Shown: positions 26,482 through 43,798, numbered from the stretch's first letter. The stretch is DNA of 55,455 nucleotides from Candidatus Aerophobus profundus SCGC AAA252-L23 (GCA_000402295.1 AQRW01000190.1:1-55455), one strand, 5' to 3'. The notes: generated from the letters alone by a model not told the origin. A program made the numbers and translations.

Positions 26482-26667
26482 TCTAACGTTAACAAATATG
26501 GTTGTGAGACCTACTCTCACAGTCTCTCTCCGCGATGGTTCCGATAAGAATTCTTATGTTAACCAAGCATACCTCTAATCCGCTCCAGATAAGACTTTCA
26601 TTTTGACTGTTTTTGTACATCTACAAATCCACATGGGAAGAAGTTTTATGATATGTCTGAAAAAGCG

Positions 26668-26793
26668 ATGAGTAGGCTATACAAGAATCCCCCGTTAATA
26701 GAGGCTGTATTCGAAATACGGTTTCCTGCTGAGTTGTTCATTGAGTGCCAAATAGATAGGTTCTACAAAAGAATTAGAAACGACTATCCTTAG
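26668..26793 (+). pseudogene. TIGR04255-family N-terminal fragment with a premature TAG
   Basis: MSRLYKNPPLIEAVFEIRFPAELFIECQIDRFYKRIRNDYP*. The paralogous copy at 29939.. has CAG where this copy has TAG (26791-26793). Confidence 0.65.
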
Positions 26794-26822
26794 ATATTTG
26801 TCCCCATAATTGTCGGGAAACC

Positions 26823-27047
26823 TCACAGTTCCTGCCATTTTTCCCGTGAGATGCCTATTTCCTTGATGATCTGTCGGACGAGACCTATGCTTATGTCTTT
26901 GCCTTTGTGGATGGGAAAAGGGATGATTCTTTTTTCCTCGAGATGAACCATTCTCACATGTTTTCCACCCGGTATGGGACCGACAAACCCAAGTTTTCTC
27001 AGCTTTCGGATTACCTCCGCGGGTTTAAGGGGTCGAAGTGGAGACAT
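26823..27047 (-). CDS. hicA: HicA-family toxin
   Basis: LKPAEVIRKLRKLGFVGPIPGGKHVRM...IPFPIHKGKDISIGLVRQIIKEIGISREKW. The ATG at 27047 is preceded by GAGGAAAG. Overlaps the hicB end. Confidence 0.75.
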   Translation of the reverse strand: MSPLRPLKPAEVIRKLRKLGFVGPIPGGKHVRMVHLEEKRIIPFPIHKGKDISIGLVRQIIKEIGISREKWQEL

Positions 27048-27294
27048 CTCTTTCCTCAATCTCTATTCCCGGGAGATGAGGTATCTCGAATCCCAATTGC
27101 AAAGCTAAGGTGACGTTACCTTCTATGGCATCCCTCAAATTCTCTCTTGCCTCTTCAAAGCAGTCGCCTTGGGCAAAGAATCCTGATGCCTCCGGTACTC
27201 TGGCAATCACTATTCCGTTTTCGTCTCGAAAATACTCAGCTTTTCTGAGGCATTCGTCAAGATAACGGGAGAGTGAGAAGATTCTTGCTTTCAT
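27025..27294 (-). CDS. hicB: HicB-like antitoxin
   Basis: MKARIFSL...VARVPEASGFFAQGDCFEEARENLRDAIEG pattern. Located directly upstream of hicA. Confidence 0.6.
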   Translation of the reverse strand: MKARIFSLSRYLDECLRKAEYFRDENGIVIARVPEASGFFAQGDCFEEARENLRDAIEGNVTLALQLGFEIPHLPGIEIEERDVSTSTP

Positions 27295-27330
27295 GATTTC
27301 ACCTGTGAGTCCTATCTTCACCCATAAGGA

Positions 27331-27358
27331 AGTATAATAACCGGTGCGGAGATGTCAA
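27331..27358 (-). promoter_or_regulatory. sigma70-like promoter TTGACA-16-TATACT for the hicBA operon
   Basis: Minus strand: TTGACA (27358-27353), a 16-nt spacer, TATACT (27336-27331), about 37 nt upstream of the ATG at 27294. Confidence 0.55.
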
Positions 27359-27370
27359 GAATTTAACATG

Positions 27371-27437
27371 TGTCAAGGGACACCATCTCTTACGAGGTTA
27401 GGGGACACCAACCTTTACGAATTATTATTCAAAAGAA
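27371..27437. repeat. dispersed about 67-bp repeat (TGTCAAGNGACACCATCTCTTACGAGGTT..GGACACCAAC.TTTACGAATTATTA.TCAAAAGAA)
   Basis: Other copies at 40302..40368 (near-identical), 43122..43213 (expanded, three sub-repeats) and 31088..31124 (partial). It contains two 17-nt direct sub-repeats: GACACCATCTCTTACGA and GACACCAACCTTTACGA. Confidence 0.8.
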
Positions 27438-27467
27438 GATCTTTGCTGTGGGATTTTATGGGGCTTT

Positions 27468-27498
27468 CTCCGATAAATCGGACCACTACAATATGGGG
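27468..27498. repeat. REP-like hairpin, family 3 (TCCGATAAATCGGACCNCTACAATATGGGG)
   Basis: Copies at 43292..43320 and 52510..52540. The stem is TCCGAT/ATCGGA. Confidence 0.75.
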
Positions 27499-27536
27499 GT
27501 TTTTCGCCAGCGTTCTATCTTGGTCCGTTAAGAGTG

Positions 27537-27872
27537 TTAAAGAAATTCGATGTGATTTTCCATTTCTTGCTGACTAAGAAGCTGGGCAACGAGTTCAATC
27601 ATACGAATACACTGTCCTACAGACAAACGCAAGGGATGAGCGTATAAGATCCCTCTATGTTTCCTTCCCTCTTGATTCCAGCGATGAGCTATTTTGAGCA
27701 AATCTGTATCATGAGTAACAATTACTGCTCCCAATCTGGAAGCACGCTGTAGATGATATTCATCGCTTTTCCCTAAATCTTCCCTATCTCGTGCTGATAC
27801 AACCTGCAGATTCCTTCTTCTAAGACCCTCCACAATGCCCGCCTCAATATTTTCATCGCAATAGATTTTCAT
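27537..27872 (-). CDS. DUF5615-family PIN-like (Mut7-C-like) putative toxin
   Basis: MKIYCDENIEAGIVEGLRRRNLQVVSA...VIVTHDTDLL. Overlaps the stop of the upstream DUF433 gene. Confidence 0.65.
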   Translation of the reverse strand: MKIYCDENIEAGIVEGLRRRNLQVVSARDREDLGKSDEYHLQRASRLGAVIVTHDTDLLKIAHRWNQEGRKHRGILYAHPLRLSVGQCIRMIELVAQLLSQQEMENHIEFL

Positions 27873-28189
27873 TCCTCAGACTTGGTCTTTAATTTAGATG
27901 GGTAAAGATTTCTCAGTTCTTTCAGGAAGATCTCCTCTTTTTTGTATGCGTTATCCAGCTCCAATTTGTTTTCATAGTAGTAGGAAAGAGCATCATGAAT
28001 TTGAGCCAGAGTTAAGTGAGGGAACTGTTGTATCATCTCATCCGGTGTCATCCCCCCGAATTCGTATCGAATAGCAATATCCATAACCTTGGTGCGTGTT
28101 CCCGCAATTACGGGAGTTTCCTTCCTAATTCCGGGATCAACGGTCACATAGGGATGTTTCAATTCACTTGGCCTGACATTGGTAGACAT
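27869..28189 (-). CDS. DUF433 domain protein (putative antitoxin partner)
   Basis: HPYVTVDPGIRKETPVIAGTRTKVMDIAIRYEFGGMTPDEMIQQFPHLTLAQIHDALSYYYEN is the classic DUF433 pattern. Confidence 0.75.
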   Translation of the reverse strand: MSTNVRPSELKHPYVTVDPGIRKETPVIAGTRTKVMDIAIRYEFGGMTPDEMIQQFPHLTLAQIHDALSYYYENKLELDNAYKKEEIFLKELRNLYPSKLKTKSEE

Positions 28190-28224
28190 CTCTGCCTCCT
28201 TACTCTTTATTGACAGTGTTCAGA

Positions 28225-28414
28225 CATTGTAATAATCGAAGATTTCAAGACCTTGTGTAGTGAGTTTGATAACTCTATTTGCCTTATCTTAACTTTCTTT
28301 GATGAAGGGTAGATGTTTCTCTTTCGTTGTCTCAACTATCGTTCTGGGTTTTTGCGTTGCTTGGTATTGTATACTTTCTTTGCCAGATGTCCAATCTTGC
28401 CAAAAAGGGACGGT
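28225..28414. repeat. 190-bp cassette shared with 40901..41090; carries a minus-strand TTGGAC-17-TACAAT promoter
   Basis: Gap-free alignment by eye to 40901..41090. The -35 is at 28394-28389 and the -10 at 28371-28366 (minus strand). In the second copy they are at 41070-41065 and 41047-41042. Confidence 0.8.
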
Positions 28415-28536
28415 GGAAATGGTAAACTGAATTCCTGGTACTATGGTAAACAGAAATCCTATATGGATGGTAAACAGAAATCCCATTTCGGAAGAGCTCC
28501 TGTATAGTTTTAGAAAACTCTACAGGAGAGGAAATG
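28414..28536 (+). mobile_element. solo left end of the IS21-family element (no transposase)
   Basis: Matches 35638..35808 from the terminal TGGAAATGGTAAACTG through the istA ATG, but with 3 rather than 5 of the 24-bp phased GGTAAACAGAAATCC repeats (at 28421, 28445, 28469). Similarity ends right after the ATG. Confidence 0.8.
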
Positions 28537-28552
28537 GACAAGGAGGAGTGAA

Positions 28553-28765
28553 ATGAAATATAGAGTAGTCATTGAACAAGACGAAGACGGTGTATTTGTT
28601 GCTGAGGTTCCATCTTTGCCTGGGTGCATCTCACAAGGGACTACGAGAGCGGAGGCACTCAAGAATATTCAAGAAGCAATAGAAGCGTATGTGGAAAGCT
28701 TGAAAGCACACGATGAGCCTGTTCCTCCATCAATAAGCGAGGAAGTAGTCGAGGTGGCGGGGTGA
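28553..28765 (+). CDS. hicB: HicB-family antitoxin (UPF0150-type)
   Basis: MKYRVVIEQDEDGVFVAEVPSLPGCISQGTTRAEALKNIQEAIEAYVESL. Strong SD (AAGGAGGAG). Confidence 0.8.
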   Translation: MKYRVVIEQDEDGVFVAEVPSLPGCISQGTTRAEALKNIQEAIEAYVESLKAHDEPVPPSISEEVVEVAG

Positions 28766-28935
28766 GTGTTCTTCCTCGTGTCTCAGGCCGAGAAGTTGTT
28801 GCGGCTTTGGATAGACGTGGCTATGAAAAAGTTATACCTCCCACCCCTACAGGGATTGTGTCCCACTTCGGGGTCACCTCGCCCTGTTATTACTCCTTCT
28901 CAGAAATGTTATTCCCAAAACGCACCCTTTTGTGA
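28762..28935 (+). pseudogene. hicA remnant (only the first 22 or so codons are HicA-like)
   Basis: A GTGA overlap with the hicB stop. VSVLPRVSGREVVAALDRRGYEKV matches a HicA N-terminus, then the sequence becomes unrelated. Confidence 0.55.
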
Positions 28936-29087: not shown

Positions 29088-29487
29088 CTCTCAAGTGAGA
29101 GGTAAGGGGAGACACGGACTCTGGGAGGTCTCTCCCTCCATGCTTCGGATATGGGGCCAGAATGTTCCTATCGCCGGGGGCGGTTATCTCCGGATCCTTC
29201 CCTATTGGGTAATCAAACGGGGAATCAGGAAGGCTAATACCGAGGGGCACCCGGCGGTGATCTACCTGCATCCTTATGAGCTTGATCCCCAGGATATTGA
29301 AGTTCCCGGTGTCTCGCCCGAGTGGGGGACACGGTTTACTCAGTTCAGTCAGCGATTCAATTGCTCAACGTTTGAGGGCAAGCTGCGAAGGCTTCACGGG
29401 GACTTTGAATTTGGCTTGGTCCGAGAGATACTGAATTTGTAGTTGGCCAGTTATGAAGAACATGAGGATATTCGAAGCACTAATATC
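29088..29487. repeat. second copy of the deacetylase 3' block (partner 24989..25387)
   Basis: Contains ORF 29095..29442, whose product aligns with the last 115 aa of the deacetylase at 24469..25344 (IWGQNVPIAGGGYLR, HPAVIYLHPYELDPQDI). The downstream GAAGCACTAATAT motif is also shared. Confidence 0.85.
29095..29442 (+). pseudogene. C-terminal fragment of a DUF3473 polysaccharide deacetylase
   Basis: See the repeat at 29088..29487. There is no N-terminal catalytic region upstream. Confidence 0.85.
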
Positions 29488-29673
29488 GAAATAATGGGTG
29501 TGGTCGAGTCTTTGAGTTTATCACGTCTATTCCGTCTGTTCAGTCGTTCGGTCGAAGACCGAGACAACCAATGACCAGTAACTAATCACCAGTGACAGAA
29601 ACCGAGATTGCCAGGTCGTTTGCACGTTCTTGGGAGGCTAAAGCCTCCCCTACACGGGGTATACGGACTTGGT

Positions 29674-30088
29674 GGTTTCGATAAGAATTCTGTGTTAACC
29701 AAGCATATCTCTAATCCGCTCCAGGTATGGCTTTCATTCCGGCTGTTTTTGTACACCTACAAATCCACGTGGGAAGAAGTTTATGGTGCACCCCAATATT
29801 GATCACAGTATTGTTTCTTACTGAGATGCGGAGGAGGAATAATCCCCACCTCTTACTTGCTGAAAAGCAAAAATGCATACTTCAACCTGGTAATCTTGAT
29901 TCCAAAAACATATCAATTATGATATGCCTGAAAAAGCGATGAGTAAACTATACAAGAATCCCCCGTTAATAGATGCTGTATTCGAAATACGGTTTCCTGC
30001 TGAGTTGTCCATTGAGTGCCAAAGAGACAGATTCTACGAAAGAATTAGAAACGACTATCCTCAGATATTTGTCCCCATAGTTGTCGGA
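29674..30088. repeat. second copy of the TIGR04255-5' block (partner 26537..26817), with an extra segment of about 135 bp
   Basis: Shared: GATAAGAATTC..GTTAACCAAGCATA.CTCTAATCCGCTCCAG... through ...TTGTCGG. 29772..29905 has no counterpart in copy 1. Confidence 0.8.
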
Positions 30089-30106
30089 GAATCTCTTTCT
30101 TTATAA
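29939..30106 (+). pseudogene. TIGR04255-family N-terminal fragment (55 aa)
   Basis: MSKLYKNPPLIDAVFEIRFPAELSIECQRDRFYERIRNDYPQIFVPIVVGE. My recollection is that full-length family members are several-fold longer. Confidence 0.6.
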
Positions 30107-30173: not shown

Positions 30174-30587
30174 ATGGTCGAAGTATTGGACGACTTGAGA
30201 GGAAAACAGAAGCTGGCGGATAGAGGTATGAAGTTTCTCAAAGAAGGAATAGAGTTTCTCGAACTCGTAAAAAGAGGAAAGCATTATACCAAGACCCTCC
30301 AACTAGACGAGCGTGCTATGGAATCCTGTTCAGCATTTGGAATGGCTCTTAGAGCACTTAATCATCTGTATAGCGTAAATGAGACCGTGGAACAGGTGGC
30401 ACATCCAAATATTGATGATTTCTTCGATGATATCAATGGGATGTTAATTAAAATTACAAAGGACGGTAGCGTGTCTCCAGAGAGACTGGATTTTCTCCGA
30501 GCATTCTTTGGAGCTATTCGGGACATTATAATACAGGAGAATTTGCGGCCGCCCGAAAGTGTGTTAATTAAGCAAGGGCTGGTTTAG
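30174..30587 (+). CDS. hypothetical protein (probably all-helical), first gene of an orphan three-ORF cassette
   Basis: 137-aa ORF with no recognisable motif. Tightly packed with the next ORF (2-nt gap). Confidence 0.4.
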   Translation: MVEVLDDLRGKQKLADRGMKFLKEGIEFLELVKRGKHYTKTLQLDERAMESCSAFGMALRALNHLYSVNETVEQVAHPNIDDFFDDINGMLIKITKDGSVSPERLDFLRAFFGAIRDIIIQENLRPPESVLIKQGLV

Positions 30588-30589
30588 GT

Positions 30590-30832
30590 ATGGAAGAGAT
30601 CGTAGGTGCACGAATTCAAGACGTTGTCAGGGACAAATTGTTTGGACTTGAAAGGTTACTCAAGGAATGTGAACCGGAGATGTCACTGCAAGGAGCCTTG
30701 GCCTTCTTGGATGCAACGAAAATGATTCTGAAGATTACGGAGGTTTACTACGAAGAGAGAGTTAAGAAAATAATGCAGATTAGAGATCAAAGCATTTGCG
30801 CAAAAAGACGACTTGCCGAAATCATTCGTTGA
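30590..30832 (+). CDS. hypothetical protein; possibly the N-terminal part of a frameshifted gene continuing in 30813..31166
   Basis: 80-aa ORF. The overlap with the next ORF lies at an A5 run (GCAAAAAGACG). Confidence 0.35.
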   Translation: MEEIVGARIQDVVRDKLFGLERLLKECEPEMSLQGALAFLDATKMILKITEVYYEERVKKIMQIRDQSICAKRRLAEIIR

Positions 30833-31166
30833 GAACGTACTCAAAGATATTAGGCAAAGCAAGCGACCTGATTCTTTTGTTTTCGTCTTATATCCCTGGA
30901 CGGAATTTCAGTCTCTTTTGTTGCCATCCTTAGTAGGACACGAAATTGGACATTTGAAAGAATCCAAAGAAAATCTGTGTGAGCTCTTCTTGCCAGAAAC
31001 CTTACATAAACCGAGCGTAGAAGCGCTGGTGCGGCGTCTGGCCCAAGAACCTCTGTATTCCAGTCAATCAACCACCCAATCACATACCTCAAGGGACACC
31101 ATCTCTTGCGAAGTTAGTGGACACTTCATCACCAAAACCTTGCTTTGTACCTTATCTTTGCTATAA
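30813..31166 (+). CDS. hypothetical protein with an HExxH motif (VGHEIGH), C-terminally replaced by repeat sequence
   Basis: Has a zinc-metallopeptidase-like HEIGH. From about 31088 the ORF runs into the dispersed TGTCAAG-type repeat, so the C-terminus is probably not native. Confidence 0.35.
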   Translation: MPKSFVENVLKDIRQSKRPDSFVFVLYPWTEFQSLLLPSLVGHEIGHLKESKENLCELFLPETLHKPSVEALVRRLAQEPLYSSQSTTQSHTSRDTISCEVSGHFITKTLLCTLSLL

Positions 31167-31321: not shown

Positions 31322-31585
31322 ATGATACAAATTGAGTTTGATATGATTGCCTTTAAGGAAGGGGCGAGTTACGTTGCTTATTGTCCTGAACTTGATATTT
31401 CAAGTTGTGGAAACACTGTGGAGCAGGCCAAGGAAATGCTCAAGAGCGCTATAAGGCTATTTCTCGAAGAAGCAGAGAAGATAGGTACCCTTAAAGACAT
31501 ACTTGAGGAAGCTAACTACAAGAAAGACACAAGCGGTAAATGGCTACCACCAAGACTTGTAGCAACAGAGCTGATAAGTCTGTGA
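31322..31585 (+). CDS. hicB: HicB-like antitoxin
   Basis: FKEGASYVAYCPELDISSCGNTVEQAKEMLKSAIRLFLEEAEKIG. Confidence 0.6.
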   Translation: MIQIEFDMIAFKEGASYVAYCPELDISSCGNTVEQAKEMLKSAIRLFLEEAEKIGTLKDILEEANYKKDTSGKWLPPRLVATELISL

Positions 31586-31588
31586 TAA

Positions 31589-31822
31589 ATGCCTAAGATA
31601 TTTCCAATTCCAGCAATTAGACTAAGAAAGATATTTGAAGAGGCTGGATTTAATTGTGTTAGAATTGAAGGTGACCATTATGTTTATACGAAAAAAGGAC
31701 TTATCAGACCTATTGTTATACCTAATTGGCCAGAGGTACCGGTATTCATAATCAGAAATAATATAAGAACCGCAGGAATTAGCAGGGAACATTATTTCCA
31801 ACTCCTAAAAAGGGTAAAATGA
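31589..31822 (+). CDS. hicA: HicA-like toxin
   Basis: IRLRKIFEEAGFNCVRIEGDHYVYTK...IVIPNW. Located 3 nt downstream of hicB. Confidence 0.6.
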   Translation: MPKIFPIPAIRLRKIFEEAGFNCVRIEGDHYVYTKKGLIRPIVIPNWPEVPVFIIRNNIRTAGISREHYFQLLKRVK

Positions 31823-31890
31823 AAAAACATTGGTAGAAGTGGAGCGACAAAGCAATTCTTCTGTCACTGCAAACAGACCAACACTTCTCT

Positions 31891-31943
31891 AGCCGCAACC
31901 TAAAGGTTGCGCTTGTTCTTCGCAGGCTAAAGCCTGCGGCTAC
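31891..31943. repeat. REP-like hairpins, family 2 (GC-stem with a CTAAAG/TTTTAA loop)
   Basis: GCCGCAACCTAAAGGTTGCGC and CGCAGGCTAAAGCCTGCGG. Related hairpins at 29632..29650, 45778..45799, 47428..47484 and 55256..55348. Confidence 0.75.
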
Positions 31944-32079
31944 CGCTCCCTAACCCTTGCTTTTTAATAAAGCTCACCGGTTACTTTGCGATGAAGTAAA
32001 GATCTACTCACCAACCAAAATCGTCAATTAATGTTCAGCTCCACATTACTATTCTATAGTTTAGTTAATACTCTGTACT

Positions 32080-32526
32080 TTGTACAGAATTTGCCTTGGC
32101 TACCAGATTCACAAGAAAATCCAGGTTGCTTCAGTTGGCAGACGCCCAGTTTATCGCAAATCAAAGTACAAGTTCCAGGCTGTATTAGTGAGGATTGAGC
32201 AGGAGAAAATAGCCATTAGAAAAAAGCGCAAGCACACTCGTTACGTAATTATCCATAATGTCTTAGGCCTTAGTGGGGCTAGAAGTGCCTTTGAGTTTTA
32301 CCACCAAAGACAAACAATAGAGAATTTCTTCAAAGAATCAAAGAACCCCTTTCATGCCGGGAAGATGCCTTCTCAGAGGTTTCGGGCTAATGAGGCTTAT
32401 CTTTGCTTTGTCTCTATCGCCTATAACATCTTTTCCATTTTTAAAAAAACTATCTGCCAAAGATATGACCAGGATGCTCTCTGGAAACTTTTAGCCATAG
32501 AACCATCTCTCAGGCAATCCGAATAG
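32080..32526 (+). pseudogene. C-terminal fragment of a DDE transposase (IS4/IS1380-like)
   Basis: YHQRQTIENFFKESK...FRANEAYLCFVSIAYNIFSIFK resembles the E-containing C-terminal DDE block. No N-terminal D-D region is present. Confidence 0.5.
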
Positions 32527-32698: not shown

Positions 32699-32917
32699 TT
32701 AAACTGCTACTTTGACTTTCCCAATCATGAGGTTTTCTTCCTGAGGAATTTCTTGGCTATCTTCCTTTAAGGCTACAAGGTGAGTCTCAATAGCTTCTCT
32801 AACACTCACCAGGGCTTGCTCGACGGTATCTCCTTGAGAGTAGCATCCAGGAAGAGAGGGCACTTCCACCCAATAACCACCCTCTCCGGCGGAATGTAAA
32901 ATCACGGTATACTCCAT
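32699..32917 (-). CDS. hicB: HicB-family antitoxin (UPF0150-type)
   Basis: MEYTVILHSAGEGGYWVEVPSLPGCYSQGDTVEQALVSVREAIETHL. Confidence 0.8.
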   Translation of the reverse strand: MEYTVILHSAGEGGYWVEVPSLPGCYSQGDTVEQALVSVREAIETHLVALKEDSQEIPQEENLMIGKVKVAV

Positions 32918-32928
32918 TTTTTATCCTC

Positions 32929-33153
32929 CTATAATAATCCGATGAATTCTCTCTCTGTTAAACCAGTTTTTCCGATGGCATTTTTAAGAAGACCTATTTT
33001 GATTTCACCTTTGGCAGGAATAGTGATTATTAATCCATTTGGCATTTTGATATTGACATGGTCACCCTTACCGCCTCTTTGAACACCCCCAGCTCTTACA
33101 AAGACCCTGATGGCTTCTTTTCCTTTAATACCTCTTAGTCTTTGTGCACTCAA
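32929..33153 (-). CDS. hicA: HicA-family toxin
   Basis: GKEAIRVFVRAGGVQRGGKGDHVNIKMPNGLIITIP...IGLLKNAIGKTGLTEREF. Confidence 0.7.
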   Translation of the reverse strand: MSAQRLRGIKGKEAIRVFVRAGGVQRGGKGDHVNIKMPNGLIITIPAKGEIKIGLLKNAIGKTGLTEREFIGLL

Positions 33154-33541: not shown

Positions 33542-34240
33542 ATGAAATACTTGGAGGATTTTTACAGAAAATTGGGGAAATGGAAAGGTAGCTTAGTGAA
33601 AACCGAGATGTTGAAAGAACAGAATGCAAAGGAATACTTGAACAGGTTAGCAAGAACTGACTTAGTTGAGAGAATAAGCTGGGGATGGTACTGGATTTCT
33701 GTAGAAATAAAAGATGAATTGGATTTCCTGGCTAAAGACAAAAACCTTAAGGTGATAGCCGCCCAAACAGCAGCATCTTTTTGGAATGCTGATTTTGTCC
33801 ACAGGGATATTTACGTTGTAAAGGTGATTGACAGATCTTTTGCCAAGGCATTGCAGCAATTCAGTAAGAAGAAGAATCTGAAGATCAAAGTAGAATATGT
33901 CAAAGGTAAAATAAAATATGTGAAAATGGGAAGATTAAATGTTGAAAGAATGGAAGACAGCATTATAGATTGCTTACAAAACTGGGCTTTTATCGATGCC
34001 TTTGCTACTTTGTATGCTAACAGGGAAAAGATTGATTTTGAGAGTTTAGCCAGGGAAAATTATTGGAAAAGGATCCCGAAAACTTCTGTCAGGATTGGGC
34101 AGGTTTTAGGTTACGGCTGTTGCCAATTGGATAAGGTAGCTCGAAAAACAGTGTTTTCTGTCAGAAAAGCCGGCCTAAAAGATGGATTCATAAGAGAAGA
34201 GGTGGATGAGGCAATCGAAAAGGTAGTTGAATATAGCTAA
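33542..34240 (+). CDS. AbiEi-like antitoxin/transcriptional regulator (type IV TA)
   Basis: An N-terminal wHTH-like region (EYLNRLARTDLVERISWGWYWI). Overlaps and precedes an AbiEii-type nucleotidyltransferase. Confidence 0.5.
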   Translation: MKYLEDFYRKLGKWKGSLVKTEMLKEQNAKEYLNRLARTDLVERISWGWYWISVEIKDELDFLAKDKNLKVIAAQTAASFWNADFVHRDIYVVKVIDRSFAKALQQFSKKKNLKIKVEYVKGKIKYVKMGRLNVERMEDSIIDCLQNWAFIDAFATLYANREKIDFESLARENYWKRIPKTSVRIGQVLGYGCCQLDKVARKTVFSVRKAGLKDGFIREEVDEAIEKVVEYS

Positions 34241-35510: not shown

Positions 35511-35637
35511 TTACAAAAACTCAATTGTATTGGTCATGTCCTTTTGCGATCGAGCTTCAACCAACGACTTAATCCTTCGGATACATTCGCCAGTGGATAA
35601 TCTTTGTTGATGTACATAGATTATGCCGTAGTGCTTT
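35511..35637 (-). pseudogene. 3' part of a DUF5615 PIN-like toxin gene severed by the IS21 insertion
   Basis: Encodes HYGIIYVHQQRLSTGECIRRIKSLVEARSQKDMTNTIEFL*, collinear with HRGILYAHPLRLSVGQCIRMIELVAQLLSQQEMENHIEFL* of the intact paralog at 27537..27872. Confidence 0.85.
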
Positions 35638-35805
35638 TGGAAATGGTAAACTGAATTACTGGTACTATGGTAAACAGAAATCCCATGGTAGTGGTAAATA
35701 GAATTCCCATGGTAATGGTAAGCAGAAATCCTATATGGATGGTAAACAGAATTCCCATCTCGGAAGAACTCCTGTATAGTTTTAGAAAACTTTACAGGAG
35801 AGGAA

Positions 35806-37365
35806 ATGATAAGAGAAAAAATGTACGAAAAAGTTCAACTTTTGAAAAGACTGGGATATCCCAGATCAAAGATAAGCTCTGATCTGGAAATAGACCCCAG
35901 GACCGCGGCCAAGTATTACGTTATGGATGAAAGGCAGTTCAAGACTTACCGCAGAGAGCACATGTTTCGGGATAAGGTGCTGGAAGAATATAAGGAAGAT
36001 ATCCTCAAAGTGTACAAGGTAAATGAATTTCACAGGCTTAATATGAGTGCCGTATATGATTATCTGGAAGAGAAATATGGCCCTCTTGCGGCCAATGAAC
36101 AAACCTTGCGCAACTACATAGATTATCTTATTAAGACAGACAAGTTAAGGTTGAATGAGAAGATAAGACTCTATTGCGAAGTTCCGGAACTTCCCTTTGG
36201 AAAACAGATGCAGCTTGATTTTGGCCAGTACCGGTGCAAAAGTGGACTTAAGCTCTATATATTTGCCTCTTTGCTTTCGGCAAGTCGCTATAAGTACGTC
36301 AATTTTCAGGACCATCCCTTCAGGACAAAGGAGGTTATTGGTCATCTGCTTAATTGTTTTGATTATTTCAGAGGAGTACCTGAGGAGATGGTTATTGATC
36401 AGGATAACTTAATGGTAGTGAGCGAGAATGCCGGGGACATAATCTACACCGATGATTTTAAGTATTTTATCGAGGAGCAAAAGATAAGAATGTATGTGTG
36501 CCGGGCAGCAGATCCTGAAACAAAAGGAAAAATTGAGAACCTCATTAAATTTGTAAAAAGCAATTTGCTCTCGATAAGGGATTTTAAGAGTGCAGATGAG
36601 GCAAATGAAAGTGGGTTTAAATGGCTCAAAAGAAGGGCAAACGGGAAGATATCCCAGGCTACCAAGCAGATACCGGCACTTCTGATTGATGAGGAAAGAG
36701 AACACCTTAGATCTGTAGGGAACTCCCTATTCAGGAAAGGCTCCCTTATAGGCAGAGAAAAGAGGAATGCAAACGAGAAAGCTTGTATATCAGTAGAAGC
36801 CTCGAGCTATCAGCTGCCTTTAAAATATCAGAACAAAACCGTTGAGATCTACCTCACCAAACACAAGCTTTTCGTCTTTGATCTCTACACAGCAAAGGAG
36901 ATTATTGAGTATGAGCTTTCTCCTATTCCCGGAAGAATATTCTCTAAGAGAGAACACCGAAGGGAGAGGGAGAAAACAGCCCAGGAGCTGAAAACGCTTG
37001 TTTCTGAGATGTTTGAATCAAAGAGCTGGAAGAGCTTTACCATGAGGAATTTTAAAGCCTTTTCCCGGTATGTCAGAGACCAATGTCTGGAGGCGAAAAG
37101 ATACTTTCTGGTCAAGGATATTGACCTTGATATTCTGGAGCAAGCTCTCAAATATTGCCTCAAGAATGATACGCTAAGTTTTTCCCACTTGAATGATACC
37201 TATGCCTATTTTAAGCATGAGTCTGAGGGACCCAATGATATCCTCAAGGAAATACAAACACTGGACCGCAAGTACCAAGGTGCGCATGAACCTTTAGAGG
37301 TCAATGAGAGAAGTTTATCTGTGTATAAAGAGCTCATCGGGATAAGCAAAGGAGCAGTTACATGA
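35806..37365 (+). CDS. istA: IS21-family transposase IstA
   Basis: 519 aa. N-terminal HTH, DDE-region pattern (QMQLDFGQY..., VIDQDNLMV, PETKGKIENLIKFVK). Overlaps istB by ATGA. Confidence 0.85.
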   Translation: MIREKMYEKVQLLKRLGYPRSKISSDLEIDPRTAAKYYVMDERQFKTYRREHMFRDKVLEEYKEDILKVYKVNEFHRLNMSAVYDYLEEKYGPLAANEQTLRNYIDYLIKTDKLRLNEKIRLYCEVPELPFGKQMQLDFGQYRCKSGLKLYIFASLLSASRYKYVNFQDHPFRTKEVIGHLLNCFDYFRGVPEEMVIDQDNLMVVSENAGDIIYTDDFKYFIEEQKIRMYVCRAADPETKGKIENLIKFVKSNLLSIRDFKSADEANESGFKWLKRRANGKISQATKQIPALLIDEEREHLRSVGNSLFRKGSLIGREKRNANEKACISVEASSYQLPLKYQNKTVEIYLTKHKLFVFDLYTAKEIIEYELSPIPGRIFSKREHRREREKTAQELKTLVSEMFESKSWKSFTMRNFKAFSRYVRDQCLEAKRYFLVKDIDLDILEQALKYCLKNDTLSFSHLNDTYAYFKHESEGPNDILKEIQTLDRKYQGAHEPLEVNERSLSVYKELIGISKGAVT

Positions 37366-38105
37366 AAGCCTATGAAGAGACTCTGAGCTTTTTAAGCACC
37401 CTGAATCTGAAAGGAATAGCCAATAATCTTGATGAAATGATACATGATGCAGAGATAAGCAAAACCTCCTATATTACCTTTCTCAACACCCTATTTACCA
37501 CTGAGATATCTTATAGAGTTAAACGCCGTGTGCAGAGAAACATGGTGGCAGCTCATTTTCCCGTGATAAAGAGAATTTCGGATTTTGAGTTTGGCCGGGT
37601 CAAGGGAATAGGAAAATCAGAAGCGGTAAATCTTCTTGACTGTGCTTGGATAGATAACAAAGAGAATCTCTTATTCTTTGGTCCCCCTGGTGTAGGGAAA
37701 ACGCACTTAGCCATATCCTTTGCGGTGGCTGCTGTAGAAAAAGGATATAGTGTTTGTTTTGAGAAAATTGCCAACCTCATCAAGCTTTTGAGAACGGCAG
37801 AGATCCAGAAAAAATCTGAATACCGGATCAGAAGAATAATGAAGTCAAGCCTAGCCGTAATTGACGAGATCGGATACACTTCGATTGAGAGACGAGAGGC
37901 CAATTTGTTTTTCAACCTGATTAGTGAAATGTATGAAAAATTATCCATTATCATTACTTCCAATAAAAGTTTTGAGAACTGGGCTGAGATGATGGGTGAC
38001 AGTGTCATGACCACAGCGTTGCTGGACAGACTATTGCATCACGCTAGGATTTTCAATATAGATGGAGAATCCTACAGAATAAAAAATCAGAAAAAGGAGG
38101 TGTGA
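37362..38105 (+). CDS. istB: IS21-family helper ATPase IstB
   Basis: Walker A FFGPPGVGKTHLA, Walker B LAVIDEIGY, ALLDRLLHH. Confidence 0.9.
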   Translation: MKAYEETLSFLSTLNLKGIANNLDEMIHDAEISKTSYITFLNTLFTTEISYRVKRRVQRNMVAAHFPVIKRISDFEFGRVKGIGKSEAVNLLDCAWIDNKENLLFFGPPGVGKTHLAISFAVAAVEKGYSVCFEKIANLIKLLRTAEIQKKSEYRIRRIMKSSLAVIDEIGYTSIERREANLFFNLISEMYEKLSIIITSNKSFENWAEMMGDSVMTTALLDRLLHHARIFNIDGESYRIKNQKKEV

Positions 38106-38194
38106 TCATTTCTAACTTCTTGAGAAATGGGAAATCTGTTTACCGGAACACTGGGAAATGTACTTACCGAAGGGGTGGGAAAAGTACTTGACAT

Positions 38195-38422
38195 TTACAG
38201 CTTTAGCTCATGTTCTTTTGCCAGAGCAAGAAAGTCATCGTCGTGCGTAAATATGGTCAACTTCTTTTCTGAGGCAAACTTCAATTGAGCTTTGTCAGTA
38301 AGTCCTAGGTTTCCGACATCTTTGGCCGAGATAGCCTTCACACCCCGACGCCTTAAACCCTGGGCAATTGCCACATTTGCACTTTCATTGGTGTAGATGC
38401 AGATTGTTTCCTGCTTACTCAT
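38195..38422 (-). pseudogene. 5' part of the IS21-disrupted DUF5615 PIN-like toxin gene
   Basis: MSKQETICIYTNESANVAIAQGLRRRGVKAISA...IFTHDDDFL. The last codons and the stop (CTG TAA) are supplied by the IS end. Confidence 0.85.
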
Positions 38423-38712
38423 TTATCTTTAAGTTGATACTGTTTCCTTAGTTTCTCCACTTGGGCTTTCCGTTGTCTAATTTCTCGGTCCAACTCTTCT
38501 CTATGTTCATAGTAATAGGATAGAACATCGTGTACCTGGGACAAATCCAGATATGGATGAGCATCAATAATCTCATCGGGCGTATAACCTAAGTACTCGT
38601 ACTCAATAACTAGGTCGATCACCCTTGTTCTGGTTCCGGAGATAACGGGGCTTCCTCCACATATGCTCTTATCCCGGATAATATAGGGATGTGTAGTCAC
38701 TGTTTTGCTCAT
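38419..38712 (-). CDS. DUF433 domain protein (partner of the disrupted DUF5615 gene)
   Basis: HPYIIRDKSICGGSPVISGTRTRVIDLVIEYEYLGYTPDEIIDAHPYLDLSQVHDVLSYYYEH. Confidence 0.75.
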   Translation of the reverse strand: MSKTVTTHPYIIRDKSICGGSPVISGTRTRVIDLVIEYEYLGYTPDEIIDAHPYLDLSQVHDVLSYYYEHREELDREIRQRKAQVEKLRKQYQLKDK

Positions 38713-39042
38713 TTTATGACCTCTCCAGGATTGTATTAGCAAATTCCAAGCACAAAACTCGAAACTATTCTATACTTACCTTGCTGTCCCTAAGTTTTTG
38801 CAAAAGCTTTCTTATGCTCCTTCTTACTTGTTCCCACGCCTTCTGCTCATCAAGAAACTTCTTGGCCGGTTTGGAATATTCTACTTTCCACTTCTCACCT
38901 CTATTTCTTATCCACCAAAGACTGTAGTGACCAGCAGGGAGATGTCAAGGGGAAGGAAAGGAGGAATAGTGACCACGGTGGCGTGTTTGAGGCAGTTGTG
39001 GAAAATAGATGAGATATGTATGCGCGGTAGGCCCGTAGAGCA

Positions 39043-39210
39043 TTAGTATATCTCATTGTGACTGCCCATATCTATCAGGAGTACTTCCTTGTGGCCCTTC
39101 GCGAATTTGAAGACAACCCGGGTCCAGAATTTCTTCCTTAGCCTACGATTATTCTTGATATTCCTTCGGTAACTTCTTTTGAACCCCTCGTCCCAAACGA
39201 GTTTAACCAC
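39043..39210 (-). pseudogene. RelE/YafQ-like toxin remnant with an apparent internal deletion (55 aa)
   Basis: VVKLVWDEGFKRSYRRNIKNNRRLRKKFWTRV fused to VFKFAKGHKEVLLIDMGSHNEIY*. The central region of the fold is missing. The upstream antitoxin-like frame (...ARRAKQAMADYRRGNVERGSVKELHQDLESG*) contains stops. Confidence 0.45.
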
Positions 39211-39602
39211 TTTCTAAGTCCTGGTGTAATTCCTTTACGCTTCCCCTTTCTACGTTCCCCCTGCGGTAGTCAGCCATTGCTTGCTTGGCTCGGCGGGCAA
39301 TCTGCTTTCTTCTTGCCTCAACCAATTGTTTCTCAATAATCTTGAGCTACATATTCTTTATCTGTTGCCGGAAGCTTACCTTATTTGGTTTCTCGCAATA
39401 CCTTTGGCTGAATAATACTCTGTGCTCCGCCCGAGTCAATTGTCAGTTTGTTCCTCAAAGCACCCTTGCATAGTCTTTGAAATATCTTCTTGCGCCAACA
39501 GCCTCACCTACCAAGGTAGCGATGTTAAGTTTTCGTTGCGTCGGAGTGTGTTTACCTTTTTGGTAGTTACATGATAATCGGATAGCCATAGTCTTCGCCA
39601 GT

Positions 39603-39872
39603 TTATCTTATGAGTTTTCTCAAAGTCTGATAAAAACCTTCCCTGGAATTTACCAGAACAATCTCAATTTGGTTCTTATTTTCGCGAACCCGATAAGCAA
39701 TCCGATACGCCGCTCTTTTGTGTGCAAAATGGTAAGATCTGATTCCTCGTAACGGACCTCTTAGTTCCTCATAGTGATGTGGATCTTCGGCTAACTTTAA
39801 AGCTTCCTATTTAATCTTCTGTTGCAAAGGTGGACTAAACTTCCTGTATCGTCTGTGAGCGGAGGGAGTCAT
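39603..39872 (-). pseudogene. RelE/ParE-family toxin with an in-frame TAG (39807-39809)
   Basis: MTPSAHRRYRKFSPPLQQKIK*EALKLAEDPHHYEELRGPLRGIRSYHFAHKRAAYRIAYRVRENKNQIEIVLVNSREGFY. Confidence 0.7.
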
Positions 39873-39888
39873 CAATACCTGATACCGT

Positions 39889-40083
39889 TTACCACTTTTC
39901 AATTGGTATTCCTTTGCCTTGATCTAACTCTTCAAGGGATTTGCCAATAGTTGCATAAGCCTTCTTGTTTAGAATAATCTCCAGGGTTTCAATCTCAGCG
40001 GAACTAAGTCCTTTTAGCAAATAGGATAGCCGTTCTAAATTGACTAGGTCATATTTGTTCATTTGCTTTAAGGCTTCAGACAT
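39889..40083 (-). CDS. putative antitoxin of the relE-like pseudogene
   Basis: An intact 64-aa ORF ending 17 nt upstream of the relE-like start. There is no strong family motif, so the call rests on position. Confidence 0.4.
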   Translation of the reverse strand: MSEALKQMNKYDLVNLERLSYLLKGLSSAEIETLEIILNKKAYATIGKSLEELDQGKGIPIEKW

Positions 40084-40249: not shown

Positions 40250-40299
40250 TATCTCGTGCTGATACAACCTGCAGATTCCTTCTTCTAAGACCCTCCACA
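40250..40299. repeat. 50-bp exact fragment of the DUF5615 gene (identical to 27785..27834)
   Basis: TATCTCGTGCTGATACAACCTGCAGATTCCTTCTTCTAAGACCCTCCACA occurs at both places. Here it is fused directly to the TGTCAAG-type repeat. Confidence 0.85.
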
Positions 40300-40402
40300 G
40301 ATGTCAAGTGACACCATCTCTTGCGAGGTTGGTGGACACCAACTTTTACGAATTATTACTCAAAAGAAAATCTTTACTGTAGGGTTTTTGGGTCCCCGAT
40401 GA

Positions 40403-40612
40403 TCAGGCATAAATAAGTCTTCCCTTAGGGGTGGGGATTTCTCTGCCCAGACTTCTTGCTGTCTCTATCCACTGGGCAATTACTATTTGGGCATTACCAA
40501 TAGCCGCCTGGTAGGTAGGTCCATCTGCCATGCAGCCCGGTAGTTCGGGAACCTCGGCTACAAATGCTCCATCTTCTTCACTCCAATAGATTATTACCTC
40601 ATATTTATACAT
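40403..40612 (-). CDS. hicB: HicB-family antitoxin (UPF0150-type)
   Basis: MYKYEVIIYWSEEDGAFVAEVPELPGCMADGPTYQAAIGNAQIVIAQWIE. Confidence 0.8.
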   Translation of the reverse strand: MYKYEVIIYWSEEDGAFVAEVPELPGCMADGPTYQAAIGNAQIVIAQWIETARSLGREIPTPKGRLIYA

Positions 40613-40865
40613 CCTTAGCCCCCTCGCAAAGTCTATATTTCACTATTATGCTTCTTATTTGTTTTACCTGGTAGGTCTTTGCTTTCCCATTGCTCAACGG
40701 TTGAATATTTATGATTTCCGGGATTCCTTCCCGAGTGAGTATATAATGATCTCCCTTGATCCGCTCAACAAAGCCCAAATTTAGAAGGGTTTTCCTCAGT
40801 CCACTGAAATCAATATTCTTGTCCGAGAGACCCGTTAATATCTTTTCTAAGGTTTTTCCCCTCAA
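40605..40865 (-). CDS. hicA: HicA-like toxin
   Basis: LRKTLLNLGFVERIKGDHYILTREG. Overlaps the downstream hicB. Confidence 0.55.
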   Translation of the reverse strand: MRGKTLEKILTGLSDKNIDFSGLRKTLLNLGFVERIKGDHYILTREGIPEIINIQPLSNGKAKTYQVKQIRSIIVKYRLCEGAKDV

Positions 40866-40900
40866 ATTTCCTCCACGGCTGCTTGTCTTTTGGTCTATAA

Positions 40901-41090
40901 CATTGTGACAATTGAAGATTCCCAGATCTTGTGTAGTGAGTTTGACAACTCTATTTGCCTTAGGTTAACTTTCTCTGATGAGGGGTAGATGTTTCTCTTT
41001 CGTTGTCTCAACTATCGTTCTGGGTTTTTGCTTTGCTTGGTATTGTATACTTTCTTTGCCAGATGTCCAATCTTGCCAAAAAGGGACGGT
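40901..41090. repeat. second copy of the 190-bp promoter/leader cassette
   Basis: See 28225..28414. Confidence 0.8.
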
Positions 41091-41233
41091 TTTATTCTTC
41101 CGCCACTCCTGATGTGGGTCTTCGTCATTCGAGTGACTTATTTTAGGGAGGGTAAGGCCTCTTTACGCTTACGAGCGGAGCAGTCAACTGCGAGATGTCT
41201 TCTTGTTCCTTTGTCACGAGAACTCAATCGCAT

Positions 41234-41457
41234 TTATGATTCTCCCAACCATTGTTCTTTTCTGATATTCGCCTGTCTCAGGACTCTAATCAATAGATCC
41301 ACACTGATTTCTTTTCTGTGCGGATTTGTGGAACGGTAAGCCTCAGATCTTCTTTTACCATATACAGGTGTTTGCCACCCGCATAGGGCCCTTCAAATCC
41401 AAATTTCCTAAGCTTATTTATCAGTTCATTGTAAGATAAAGGGCTTAGTTTGGGCAT
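41234..41457 (-). pseudogene. hicA toxin gene with a 1-nt frameshift (length 224 nt)
   Basis: MPKLSPLSYNELINKLRKFGFEGPYAGGKHLYMVKEDLRLTVP, then the frame shifts to TNPHRKEISVDLLIRVLRQANIRKEQWLGES*. The junction is near plus-strand GG 41330-41331. Confidence 0.7.
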
Positions 41458-41706
41458 TTACAGGGCCTCGACCTTGACATCCTCTACGGCTAAATGTCCC
41501 AACTGGGGAATAGAAAGCTCCTTTTTTATGCTTACTACCAACCAGCCTTCTATTATTTCCTTCAGATTGTCTCGACACTGCTCAAGAGTTTTTCCGGTGG
41601 CCCACACGCCTTTCAATTCACGGACTTCCCCGTAGTAAGGCTCCTGATCATCTATTACTTCATATTTTGCCCTTCTTAATGCCTGCTCGATATATTCAGT
41701 CAGCAT
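41458..41706 (-). CDS. hicB: HicB-like antitoxin
   Basis: YYGEVRELKGVWATGKTLEQCRDNLKEIIEGWL. Directly upstream of the frameshifted hicA. Confidence 0.6.
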   Translation of the reverse strand: MLTEYIEQALRRAKYEVIDDQEPYYGEVRELKGVWATGKTLEQCRDNLKEIIEGWLVVSIKKELSIPQLGHLAVEDVKVEAL

Positions 41707-42410
41707 AAACGGTACCTCCTGTTTTCCTTTGTGCGAGCTTATTTAGTATATTTCATGGTCAACGGGGTTTTGCTCTTATCGGGGTTCTTACGCACCGTGG
41801 AGACTTGCTCTTTCACCTTTCAGTTCTATCTTCATCCATCAAGAACTACAACGACCGGGGCGGGAGATGTCAAGAACTGGTGACAGAGGTTACCGGCCAC
41901 CAGCTCAAGGCACCCTTTCATACCAGGAAGGAAAGACTAAGCTTCTGTTTAAGTACAGCTAATTAGTGTCCGATCCATGGGGTTACATCTCCACCTTCCC
42001 AGTTTTCCTCTTTACTGTGGCATTTCTTGGTCCATTATGATCGGGTATAAATGAGTCTTCGTGTCCTGGTAGGCCGGCTTAGTGCATTGTGTGAATCTGC
42101 CTTGAAAAAGCCAGGAAGATTAAGTAGAAGATATTGTTGATGCCCACAGGTGTAAAGGTTAAAGCATCTTCCTCCACCGATAGTGTCCCCACCAAATTTT
42201 CCATCTGCCCAATTGGTATGGTTCTGATTCTTTGTTTCCTTTTGGTTTCCTGCCGGCTGGTTATCAGTTGTTCCAGGGAAAATATAGCCGGAGGAGAGAC
42301 ACTGTCAAGGAGAAAGGGATGCGAGCTGAGCAAGGTGGCTGTCGGAACAGTAAGAGGAGTGCAGAAAGTATGACATAATTACTTTGCATTGACATGATTT
42401 GATGCGTACC

Positions 42411-42439
42411 TTGACAATGTAGTCACAATGTGGTAACAT
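42411..42439 (+). promoter_or_regulatory. sigma70-like promoter TTGACA-17-TAACAT with an ACAATGT/ACATTGT operator-like repeat, upstream of brnTA
   Basis: TTGACA at 42411-42416 and TAACAT at 42434-42439. ACAATGT occurs twice directly and once inverted (ACAATGTggtaACATTGT) across the spacer and -10 region. Confidence 0.5.
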
Positions 42440-42460
42440 TGTAGTGGTGGAGGAAAGGAA

Positions 42461-42745
42461 ATTTTAGCGCATATTCATGCCTTTGATTGGGATGAAAAGA
42501 ACGAAAGCCATATAGTCAGACATGGAGTTGCTCTTCTTGAAGTTGAAGAGGCCATTTTGTTTGATAAGCCATTCTACCAAAGGAGTAGAGAGGATAAATA
42601 TGTGGCTTATGCTGTTACAGAAGAAGGCAGATTCTTGTTTATAGTCTTTGCCATTAAAGGCCCTGACCGGATAAGAATTATCACTGCAAGAGATATGGCT
42701 GACAAGGAAAAGCGTTATTATAGAAAGCGAAGAGGAGCGAGATAA
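42461..42745 (+). CDS. brnT: BrnT-family (DUF497) toxin; apparently no canonical start, candidate ATT start
   Basis: The conserved N-terminus HAFDWDEKNESHIVRHGVALLEVEEAILFD lies upstream of the first ATG/GTG/TTG (42557). The frame opens at 42437. ATT at 42461 sits 7 nt after GGAGG. The C-terminus has RIRIITARDMADKEKRYY. Confidence 0.6.
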   Translation: MLAHIHAFDWDEKNESHIVRHGVALLEVEEAILFDKPFYQRSREDKYVAYAVTEEGRFLFIVFAIKGPDRIRIITARDMADKEKRYYRKRRGAR

Positions 42746-42746
42746 G

Positions 42747-43082
42747 ATGAAAAACAAGATGCCTAAGTTTAAATCCGAAGAAGAAGAGAGACGTTTTTGG
42801 CAAACTCACAGCTCACTCGATTACCCAGAAGAGTTTACTGATGTGAAAGAGCTGCTAGAGTTCGATCCTGTCCTCTTAAAGAAAGCTGCTAAGAGGAGAG
42901 CACAGAGAAAACGTCACCTTACTTTGAGGATGGACCAACAGCAAATTGATTTAGCTAAAGTTATTGCTGAATACAGAGGACTTGGATATCAGACCTTGAT
43001 GAGAATGTGGGTCATTGAAGGCATCCACAAAGAGATTGAGGAACACCCGGCTCTAAAGAAACGACTTGCCTCACAAAAGTAA
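42747..43082 (+). CDS. brnA: BrnA-family antitoxin
   Basis: FKSEEEERRFWQTHSSLDY at the N-terminus and a RHH-like C-terminus (LTLRMDQQQIDLAKVIAEYRGLGYQTLMRMW). Confidence 0.7.
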   Translation: MKNKMPKFKSEEEERRFWQTHSSLDYPEEFTDVKELLEFDPVLLKKAAKRRAQRKRHLTLRMDQQQIDLAKVIAEYRGLGYQTLMRMWVIEGIHKEIEEHPALKKRLASQK

Positions 43083-43552
43083 GCCCAGAACATTCCCCAG
43101 CTACCGTAGAAAAGAGACAGGTGTCAAGTGACACGTATCCTTACAAATGTCAAATGACAGCATCTCTTACGAGGTTGGGAACACCAACTCTTACGAATTA
43201 TTGCTCAAAGGAAAATTTCGGTATTCTTATGCTTCCTGGTATGACAAGACAGCCAGAGAGAGGTATACTATAGTTCGGTTACATTTAAGGGTCCGATAAA
43301 TCGAACCGCTACAATATGGGGCTTTCTCAGCGGTACGCTAGAGAAGGGGAGTTTAAAAGCTCCCCTTCCTGTTTAGGGCTACCAATCAAGGCCAGAACCT
43401 CGCAATGACAAAAAAGGAAACGTTATGATGAGCTGGTGGAATCAAAAAGTAGACAAGAAAGGCAGAAAGCATATAATACTACAAGTCACTAGCCAAGTGT
43501 GATTAGCCAGGAAAGAAATGAAAAAGGGGATTAAGGAAAGAATAAGATTCTT

Positions 43553-43700
43553 TGGGTCCCTGGTGATCAGGCATAAATAAGTCTTCCCTCAGGGGTGGGG
43601 ATTTCTCTGTCCAAACTTCTTGCTGTCTCTATCCACTGAAATCAATATTTTTGTCCGAGAGACCTGTTAATATCTTTATCTAAGGGTTTTTCTACCTTAC
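43553..43700. other. hicAB deletion scar (hicB 3' end fused to hicA 5' end)
   Basis: 43553-43640 matches 40385-40475 (hicB 3' end and flank). 43638-43700 matches 40795-40860 (hicA 5' region). The roughly 320 bp between them is missing. Confidence 0.75.
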
Positions 43701-43798
43701 TTAAACAAAGGGAAAGGGAAAAAGAAGGGCTAAGAATAACCATCCGTTGCCAGAGGTGGAGACATGATAGAGAAGCAAGAATCAAATGAGAAGCGATC

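Follow-up and report, generated by a model that had tools for sequence, protein, structure and literature searches.

Why should the genes that start a surface-polysaccharide pathway lie more than 17 kb away from the genes that assemble the polymer? This question is raised by a stretch of 55,455 nucleotides from Candidatus Aerophobus profundus SCGC AAA252-L23 (GCA_000402295.1, AQRW01000190.1:1-55455), here called the window, which corresponds to the complete contig C190 in a metagenome-assembled genome (MAG; 2.31 Mb in 190 contigs, about 70% complete, GC 43.4%). A first-pass annotation had described an interval at positions 26482-43798 that is filled with toxin-antitoxin (TA) and insertion sequence (IS) genes and flanked by glycan genes, and scans with Pfam, NCBIfam and PADLOC confirm this arrangement, with the glycan genes of both sides on the same strand. 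The explanation that we favor, and consider reasonably probable, is that TA and IS genes accumulated piecemeal in a gap that separates two transcription units of the same polysaccharide locus. The upstream unit would serve assembly and modification, with glycosyltransferases (GTs), a Wzy polymerase, methyltransferases, an ATP-grasp enzyme and a deacetylase, and the downstream unit precursor formation and initiation, with a PglF-like dehydratase, VanZ and a PglC-like phosphoglycosyl transferase (PGT). Of the original interpretation, the core idea of one locus is supported by synteny and the stepwise accretion is supported as well, while four points had to be amended. As the window is a MAG contig, all conclusions on adjacency carry an assembly caveat.

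The left glycan block covers positions 1-26481, and all of its sizeable open reading frames (ORFs) lie on the plus strand. According to Pfam and NCBIfam matches, it encodes a B12/radical-SAM fragment, several S-adenosylmethionine (SAM) methyltransferases, GT2 and GT4 glycosyltransferases and a WbuC-like cupin, together with a DegT/LegC-type aminotransferase (5444-6565), a Wzy-like polymerase (15869-17578; Wzy_C, 36.2 bits), an ATP-grasp enzyme (23242-24414), a DUF3473/XrtA-type polysaccharide deacetylase (24496-25344, full-length frame by tblastn) and, as the last gene, a methyltransferase (25567-26481). The family scans bear out that the glycosyltransferase, methyltransferase and polymerase genes end at 26481. 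Among the left-block ORFs scanned, no PGT, 4,6-dehydratase or flippase family was found, and the genes for a CapD/PglF-like dehydratase, VanZ and an initiating PGT indeed appear only from 43799 on. The first of this plus-strand trio (43799-45700) encodes 633 amino acids (aa) that match Polysacc_synt_2 (PF02719) with 359.8 bits and include an N-terminal CoA_binding_3 region (PF13727, 54.1 bits), so that it is predicted to be a membrane-bound UDP-sugar 4,6-dehydratase of the PglF/CapD kind. It is followed by VanZ (45824-46282; Pfam) and by a small Bac_transf PGT of 211 aa (46373-47008; 185.5 bits).

Whether the two halves represent one locus type can be judged from four independent homologous loci (L189/L187, L190, L191 and L192), which were the best available homologs in a large protein collection. 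In L189/L187 (JAUWZM010000001.1), one plus-strand run begins with GTs, methyltransferases, a deacetylase (63% identity), PHP, ATP-grasp (46%) and VanZ (41%), continues with UDP-glucose dehydrogenase, epimerase, methyltransferase, VanZ, AbiEi/AbiEii and a WecA-type PGT, and ends with BrnA/BrnT and HicB (these on the minus strand), DegT and CapD (55%), after which housekeeping genes follow. L190 holds deacetylase (68%), PHP, ATP-grasp (47%), VanZ, PGT, a CopG-type antitoxin, DegT and CapD (58%), and L191 holds GTs, radical SAM, methyltransferase, deacetylase (65%), VanZ, PGT, two small ORFs and DegT, and ends before CapD. In L192, where no TA genes were found, the order is Wzy, GTs, deacetylase (57%), a FemAB-like gene, formyltransferase, Bac_transf PGT, epimerase, DegT, CapD and VanZ. 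The deacetylase block and the VanZ/PGT/DegT/CapD block are thus contiguous and on one strand in all four loci, at distances of 0.04-6 kb in L189/L187, L190 and L192, and GT2, PGT, DegT and PglF are likewise contiguous in two order-level relatives. Because of this contiguity, the genes with which the two halves of the window face each other are members of a single locus type, and the synteny test is favorable to the core idea. It had also been asked whether the methyltransferase at 25567 directly precedes the CapD homolog elsewhere. The deacetylase and CapD blocks do adjoin, but this methyltransferase is not a natural end of the block; it is absent from the second copy of a duplicated segment that is described below, and is therefore not the original end of the left block.

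What fills the gap is largely TA material. The interval begins with an apparently intact hicA/hicB pair (26823-27321, minus strand; PF07927, 54.9 bits, and PF21748, 47.9 bits), an intact pair of a DUF5615 (PIN-like) toxin and a DUF433 antitoxin (27537-28189, minus strand; Pfam) and a hicB with a decayed hicA fragment (28553-28935, plus strand; HicB_lk_antitox, 49.5 bits), where the adjacent ORF of 57 aa has no family match and is probably HicA-like according to our own reading of its sequence. Further on there are a hicA with an upstream ORF that has no family match and is presumably HicB-like from its position (31322-31822, plus strand; HicA_toxin, 33 bits), a DDE transposase fragment (32080-32526, plus strand) with copies of about 92% identity on contigs C82, C87 and C80, another hicA/hicB pair from the profile scan (32699-33153, minus strand) and an AbiEi-like/AbiEii pair (33542-34994, plus strand; PF08843, 34.2 bits, and weak PADLOC matches to AbiEi and AbiEii), which is a type IV TA and abortive-infection system. 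The right part contains a DUF433/DUF5615 pair whose toxin gene is disrupted by an IS element (38195-38742, minus strand, with the N-terminal part of the toxin, the remainder lying at 35511-35637), a hicA/hicB pair (40403-40865, minus strand), a truncated hicA of 55 aa with a UPF0150-type hicB (41290-41706, minus strand; profile scan) and a brnT with a CopG-type brnA antitoxin (42557-43082, plus strand), in which brnT covers only profile positions 37-77 when read from the first canonical start. The TA cassettes are thus found on both strands, and they comprise six HicA/HicB-type pairs (two with truncated or decayed toxins), two DUF433/DUF5615 pairs, one AbiE and one BrnTA. About 12 TA modules or remnants had been counted at first; about ten recognizable modules and three deletion or duplication scars were found. 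The IS21 element, the solo IS end and the transposase fragment that had been reported were all recovered by profile scans and repeat comparison. Neither the small ORFs at 39043-40083 nor three tightly packed ORFs at 30174-31166 (plus strand) matched a family in Pfam, NCBIfam or PADLOC; the latter three occupy a place that is taken by a hicAB pair in the first copy of the duplicated segment.

This density is not a property of the genome as a whole. Five of the eight PF07927 (HicA) matches of the 2.3-Mb assembly fall into these 17.3 kb, i.e. into 0.75% of it, and with a binomial P of about 1e-9 the clustering is far beyond chance. Moreover, the content between the same two blocks varies among the homologous loci, which hold zero to three TA genes there, with TA genes present in two of the four (L187/L189 and L190). 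With its significant clustering of TA and abortive-infection genes, the interval fits a TA-rich variable hotspot, or a putative defense island. We also considered that these TA genes might be orthologous to those of L187, and rejected it: AbiE gave no match, and BrnT and HicB are only 37% and 34% identical. As the inter-block TA genes are not orthologous to those of the window, repeated independent colonization is indicated rather than inheritance. Within the interval itself, TA proteins of the same family share a mutual identity of only 30-49%, and the modules are therefore separate acquisitions and not recent tandem copies.

The interval also preserves traces of how it was built, and several separate events contributed: the insertion of IS21 into a toxin gene, the duplication of a segment with the 3' part of the deacetylase gene and the 5' part of a TIGR04255 gene, and the duplication of a hicAB copy that was then internally deleted. 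The IS21-family element (35638-38199, plus strand) is complete, with istA (35806-37365) and istB (37362-38105; IstB_IS21, 258.9 bits), although IstA itself gives only a weak rve match (24.4 bits, below cut-off). Its termini are TG-initiated and multiply repeated, and it is flanked by a 5-bp target duplication, GCTTT, so that the gene pair, the terminal repeats and the short target duplication of this family are all present. Joining the flanks restores a DUF5615 ORF of 114 aa that is collinear with the intact paralog at 27537-27872, and the toxin gene hence predates the arrival of the element. A solo IS21 left end at 28414-28536 is about 90% identical to 35686-35808, and the 190-bp cassette upstream of it, which starts at 28224, has a second copy at 40900-41090 (94%).

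In the duplicated segment, the deacetylase 3' end is followed by a repetitive extragenic palindrome (REP)-like element and a TIGR04255 5' fragment, and a block of TA genes separates the two copies. Copy A (24990-26824, plus strand) consists of the 3' part of the deacetylase gene, the REP-like element, the methyltransferase gene and the TIGR04255 5' fragment (26653-26793). Copy B (29088-30106, plus strand) holds the deacetylase 3' fragment, in which DUF3473 is still recognized with 95.4 bits (29095-29442), and the TIGR04255 5' fragment (29924-30106), without the methyltransferase gene. The copies correspond at 24990-25387 and 29088-29486 with 84% identity and at 26536-26824 and 29673-30095 with 89-92%. 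Both end at the same point of TIGR04255, and the truncation of that gene therefore preceded the duplication. At the right edge of the interval, a TA scar had been proposed, and repeat comparison shows that it is real: at 43551-43690 (minus strand), the 3' end of hicB (40387-40474) is fused to the 5' part of hicA (40795-40857) with 92-94% identity, which makes it a copy of the hicAB pair at 40403-40865 with an internal deletion of about 320 bp. A dispersed repeat of 70-140 bp occurs at 27365-27505, 31081-31124, 40296-40388 and 43142-43328, and this repeat, the 190-bp cassette and the hicAB scar mark further local events. Short dispersed repeat families are found in other parts of the genome as well, such as a 55-60-bp element (31890-31948 in the window) that is present on at least 12 contigs.

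A gap of this kind could alternatively have been filled by one insertion, either of a mobile genomic island or of an integron-like array of cassettes. Many small cassettes separated by a dispersed repeat of 70-140 bp would suit such an origin, and so would a tyrosine-recombinase C-terminal remnant at 47104-47250 (plus strand; model positions 120-168 of 172; 42.5 and 45 bits). However, this remnant is the only match to the PF00589 integrase domain on the contig and lies 3.3 kb beyond the interval, inside and at the edges of which none was found. No tRNA or tmRNA gene was found, no Rfam match occurs anywhere in the window, and no repeat family pairs the left edge of the interval with the right edge. 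The early statement that no integrase, tRNA or attachment site bounds the interval is thus correct for its inside and its edges, and needs to be qualified for the recombinase remnant just past the PGT gene. The composition is native, with a GC content of 0.419 in the interval against 0.433 in the genome and a tetranucleotide correlation of 0.94 with the rest of the genome. In addition, the cassettes occur in both orientations, the dispersed repeat is made of direct sub-repeats instead of an attC-like palindrome and is also present on other contigs, the homologous loci already hold zero to three TA genes between the same two blocks, and the nested and duplicated structure needs several events. 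Neither a site-specifically integrated island, which would show an edge integrase, tRNA or att repeats and a deviating composition, nor an integron with an attC array, for which the integrase is missing and the sub-repeats and both-strand cassettes do not fit (a formal attC model was not applied), describes the interval, and we regard a single insertion as hardly credible. The nested IS21, the duplications, the scar and the divergent TA paralogs all support stepwise accretion instead, as had been claimed. The glycan flanks are richer in GC (0.469 and 0.490), with the trio ranking among the top 3.6% of windows of 3.2 kb. We rejected composition as a proof of their common origin, as the trio is short and the tetranucleotide correlation between the two flanks is only 0.59.

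Accretion is not the whole history, since the right unit was rearranged in this lineage. The trio has the order CapD-VanZ-PGT in the window and VanZ-PGT-CapD in the relatives L185 and L186 (CapD 88% and 86% identical), CapD is placed after the PGT in more distant comparison loci too, and compared to all those loci in which a Bac_transf PGT is likewise present, the order in the window is permuted. It is the trio order of the window that is derived. REP-like elements (GAGATTGCCACGTC...CTCGCAAT) lie at the trio junctions, as a comparison of window positions 43737-45841 to L185 and L186 shows, and it seems that the unit of three genes underwent a circular permutation mediated by these repeats. The trio is preceded by a leader of 53 nt (43684-43736, plus strand) that is 98% identical to a sequence upstream of vanZ in L186, so that the same leader stands before capD in the window and before vanZ in the relative; a role as a conserved regulatory element for these initiation genes is possible. 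Compared to the 98% of the leader with L186, the DNA of vanZ-PGT shares about 88% identity with the sister contig L185. With this leader and a promoter-like site at 43450-43477, which is a consensus match only, the trio can probably be expressed by itself.

A rival explanation is that the two halves are independent glycan modules, with nothing split at all and a mobile, self-contained trio that landed beside a TA/IS hotspot downstream of an unrelated GT cluster. In L185, the trio has a URO-D-family gene upstream and a convergent UDP-sugar dehydrogenase gene downstream. The identities to the nearest organismal relatives are 86-88% for the trio, 86% for URO-D and 92% for the sugar dehydrogenase, and the orthologs of the latter two sit outside the window, on contigs C99 and C91 of this genome. 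The URO-D ortholog (C99:5198-5990) is truncated after about residue 244, at the end that is turned toward the trio in L185, and a REP-like hairpin lies at the break. The leader of the trio, its permuted order with REP-like elements at the junctions and the recombinase remnant directly downstream would also be in line with a mobile unit, as would the two further Bac_transf PGTs of the genome, on C171 and C175, and a 3' fragment of a Bac_transf PGT at C71:3676-3870 (62-83% aa identity to the PGT of L185), a remnant of a further copy that suggests earlier copies elsewhere. On the other hand, the two blocks adjoin on one strand in four homologous loci, and the left block has no PGT or 4,6-dehydratase, yet its DegT needs a 4-keto sugar. 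It would also be an unlikely chance for the trio to land downstream of a locus that is missing exactly its functions, at a distance of 17 kb and with matching orientation. Two independent modules, with a trio that was relocated next to an existing hotspot, are a real rival but in our view unlikely.

Several observations nevertheless weigh against two units of one locus as the explanation. The L185 trio lies between URO-D and the UDP-sugar dehydrogenase and does not adjoin left-block genes, so the trio may have come to its present site by relocation and not by a split in place. The ortholog of the DegT found beside CapD elsewhere lies on C91 and not in the window: next to the sugar dehydrogenase (92%), C91 encodes a DegT that is 60% identical to the CapD-adjacent DegT of L187 and L190, to which the window's own DegT is only 34% identical. 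The comparison loci mostly have WecA-type PGTs, are 46-68% identical to the window genes, contain TA genes that are not orthologous to those of the window and may not come from close organismal relatives. The deacetylase was found in only one of 30 relatives' genomes that were searched (G014, 51% identity), and the genome of the same genus has neither CapD nor the methyltransferase nor the deacetylase. As the locus is sporadic, the same-genus and order species representatives are nearly uninformative. No other contig matches the window's CapD exactly, and scans of metagenome and genome collections with this protein returned identities of at most 47%.

Finally, the adjacency of the two halves itself depends on the assembly of a MAG contig, which could have joined sequences of different places or strains at repeats. 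The MAG is fragmented into 190 contigs and about 70% complete, the region is rich in repeats, and the 378 bp at 47141-47518 are 100% identical to the start of another contig (C91:1-378), which is either an unresolved assembly fork or a very recent duplication. The recombinase remnant is situated within this stretch. Because of the identity with C91, what truly follows the PGT gene could be the assembled ABC permease or the genes of C91, and both arrangements could occur, each in other strains. This fork, however, lies to the right of the trio and not at the edges of the TA-rich interval. The longest exact repeat inside 26-44 kb has 50 bp and the others are 84-95% identical, exact matches to other contigs do not exceed 63 bp, and the nested IS21 with its clean target duplication as well as the ordered duplication resemble real sequence. 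We think that an assembly artifact is very unlikely to account for the arrangement.

Beyond the trio, the contig encodes ABC permeases, gpsA and a pyruvate formate-lyase-like enzyme. The ABC transporter genes (47504-50425) have a very low GC content at third codon positions (0.27-0.30), and the permease is 75% identical to one in G028, a genome of another family, against only 38% in the same-genus genome, which suggests horizontal transfer or a binning problem. An element of about 230 bp that occurs with 80-84% identity on at least five contigs is present twice in the window (47322-47518 and 55148-55384).

How could a polysaccharide locus have come to accommodate all this? According to established TA biology, addictive modules would resist clean deletion, and they would therefore accumulate and decay toxin-first. 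In our explanation of a gap between two units of one locus, insertions would be tolerated as the downstream unit comes with a leader and a putative promoter of its own. The TA modules would be hard to lose because a clean deletion would free the toxin, and they would thus accumulate and decay mainly by toxin inactivation. The dispersed REP-like repeats and IS copies may then cause duplications and deletions in the vicinity and may have brought capD to its place before vanZ-PGT, and the cluster may double as an abortive-infection defense patch next to a phage-receptor locus. A bolder proposal, which we hold to be doubtful, is that the gap between assembly and initiation genes is a conserved TA landing pad across distant lineages, where modules are retained for a benefit to the locus and are not inert passengers. 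Such benefits might lie in guarding the initiation genes against deletion, or in coupling abortive-infection defense to the synthesis of a phage-receptor glycan.

The glycan genes themselves resemble Wzy-dependent O-antigen or exopolysaccharide loci with a PglF-PglE-PglC module. Of such a locus, the window holds Wzy_C, multiple GT2 and GT4 glycosyltransferases, DegT, a membrane-anchored Polysacc_synt_2 dehydratase and the small Bac_transf PGT (185.5 bits). The initiation genes differ from this pattern in lying 17 kb from the rest and in permuted order. Also in contrast to these loci, neither a Wzx flippase nor a chain-length regulator was found among the window ORFs scanned, but the contig starts inside the locus and these genes may lie beyond it. 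Furthermore, the deacetylase lacks a canonical start codon: from 24496 on, its frame is open and homologous, with CTT in the position of the start methionine of the homologs, and the first ATG, GTG or TTG start is found at 24664. This could reflect a non-canonical start or early decay. On the N-terminally short ORF, TIGR03006, the deacetylase model for XrtA/PEP-CTERM-associated exopolysaccharide loci, scores 235.9 bits against a cut-off of 276.2, and no exosortase gene was found in the window. Given the deacetylase start and the lack of a flippase in the window, the integrity of the glycan pathway is uncertain. Interruptions of capsule and O-antigen loci by IS elements are commonplace (for example PMC9769513).

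Structural-variant hotspots rich in hicAB, with TA insertions, deletions and orphan genes, are known from ANME-1 archaea (PMC13385816). The interval shares with such hotspots and defense islands the clustering of diverse hicAB and other type II and type IV TA operons, partial deletions and orphan genes, the debris of mobile elements and a content that differs between related genomes. Unlike in these, the cluster is situated inside a polysaccharide locus, between its assembly and initiation units, with TA genes also between both units in two of the four homologous loci, and no restriction-modification or other large defense system accompanies it. A third point of comparison are the sedentary chromosomal integrons and integrase-less attC clusters, where TA cassettes are thought to stabilize the array against deletion. 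Many small TA cassettes in an array with repeats between them are common to both, but here the integron integrase and attC-like palindromes are absent and both orientations occur.

TA-rich hotspots and IS-interrupted surface-sugar loci are thus already known, and the interval is a clear further case, if a rather ordinary one, of selfish genes that accumulate in a variable locus for surface sugars. More unusual is the recurrence of TA genes at this position, between the two blocks, in some of the distant homologous loci. For an uncultured lineage, the interval provides a well-resolved case of addiction modules and IS elements that build up stepwise in a tolerated gap among surface-glycan genes. 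It also holds a warning for annotation, as glycan pathways in MAGs can look incomplete when the initiation genes have been displaced by tens of kb or onto other contigs. Should the presence of TA genes between the two blocks turn out not to be random, TA and abortive-infection biology would be tied to the variation of receptor glycans.

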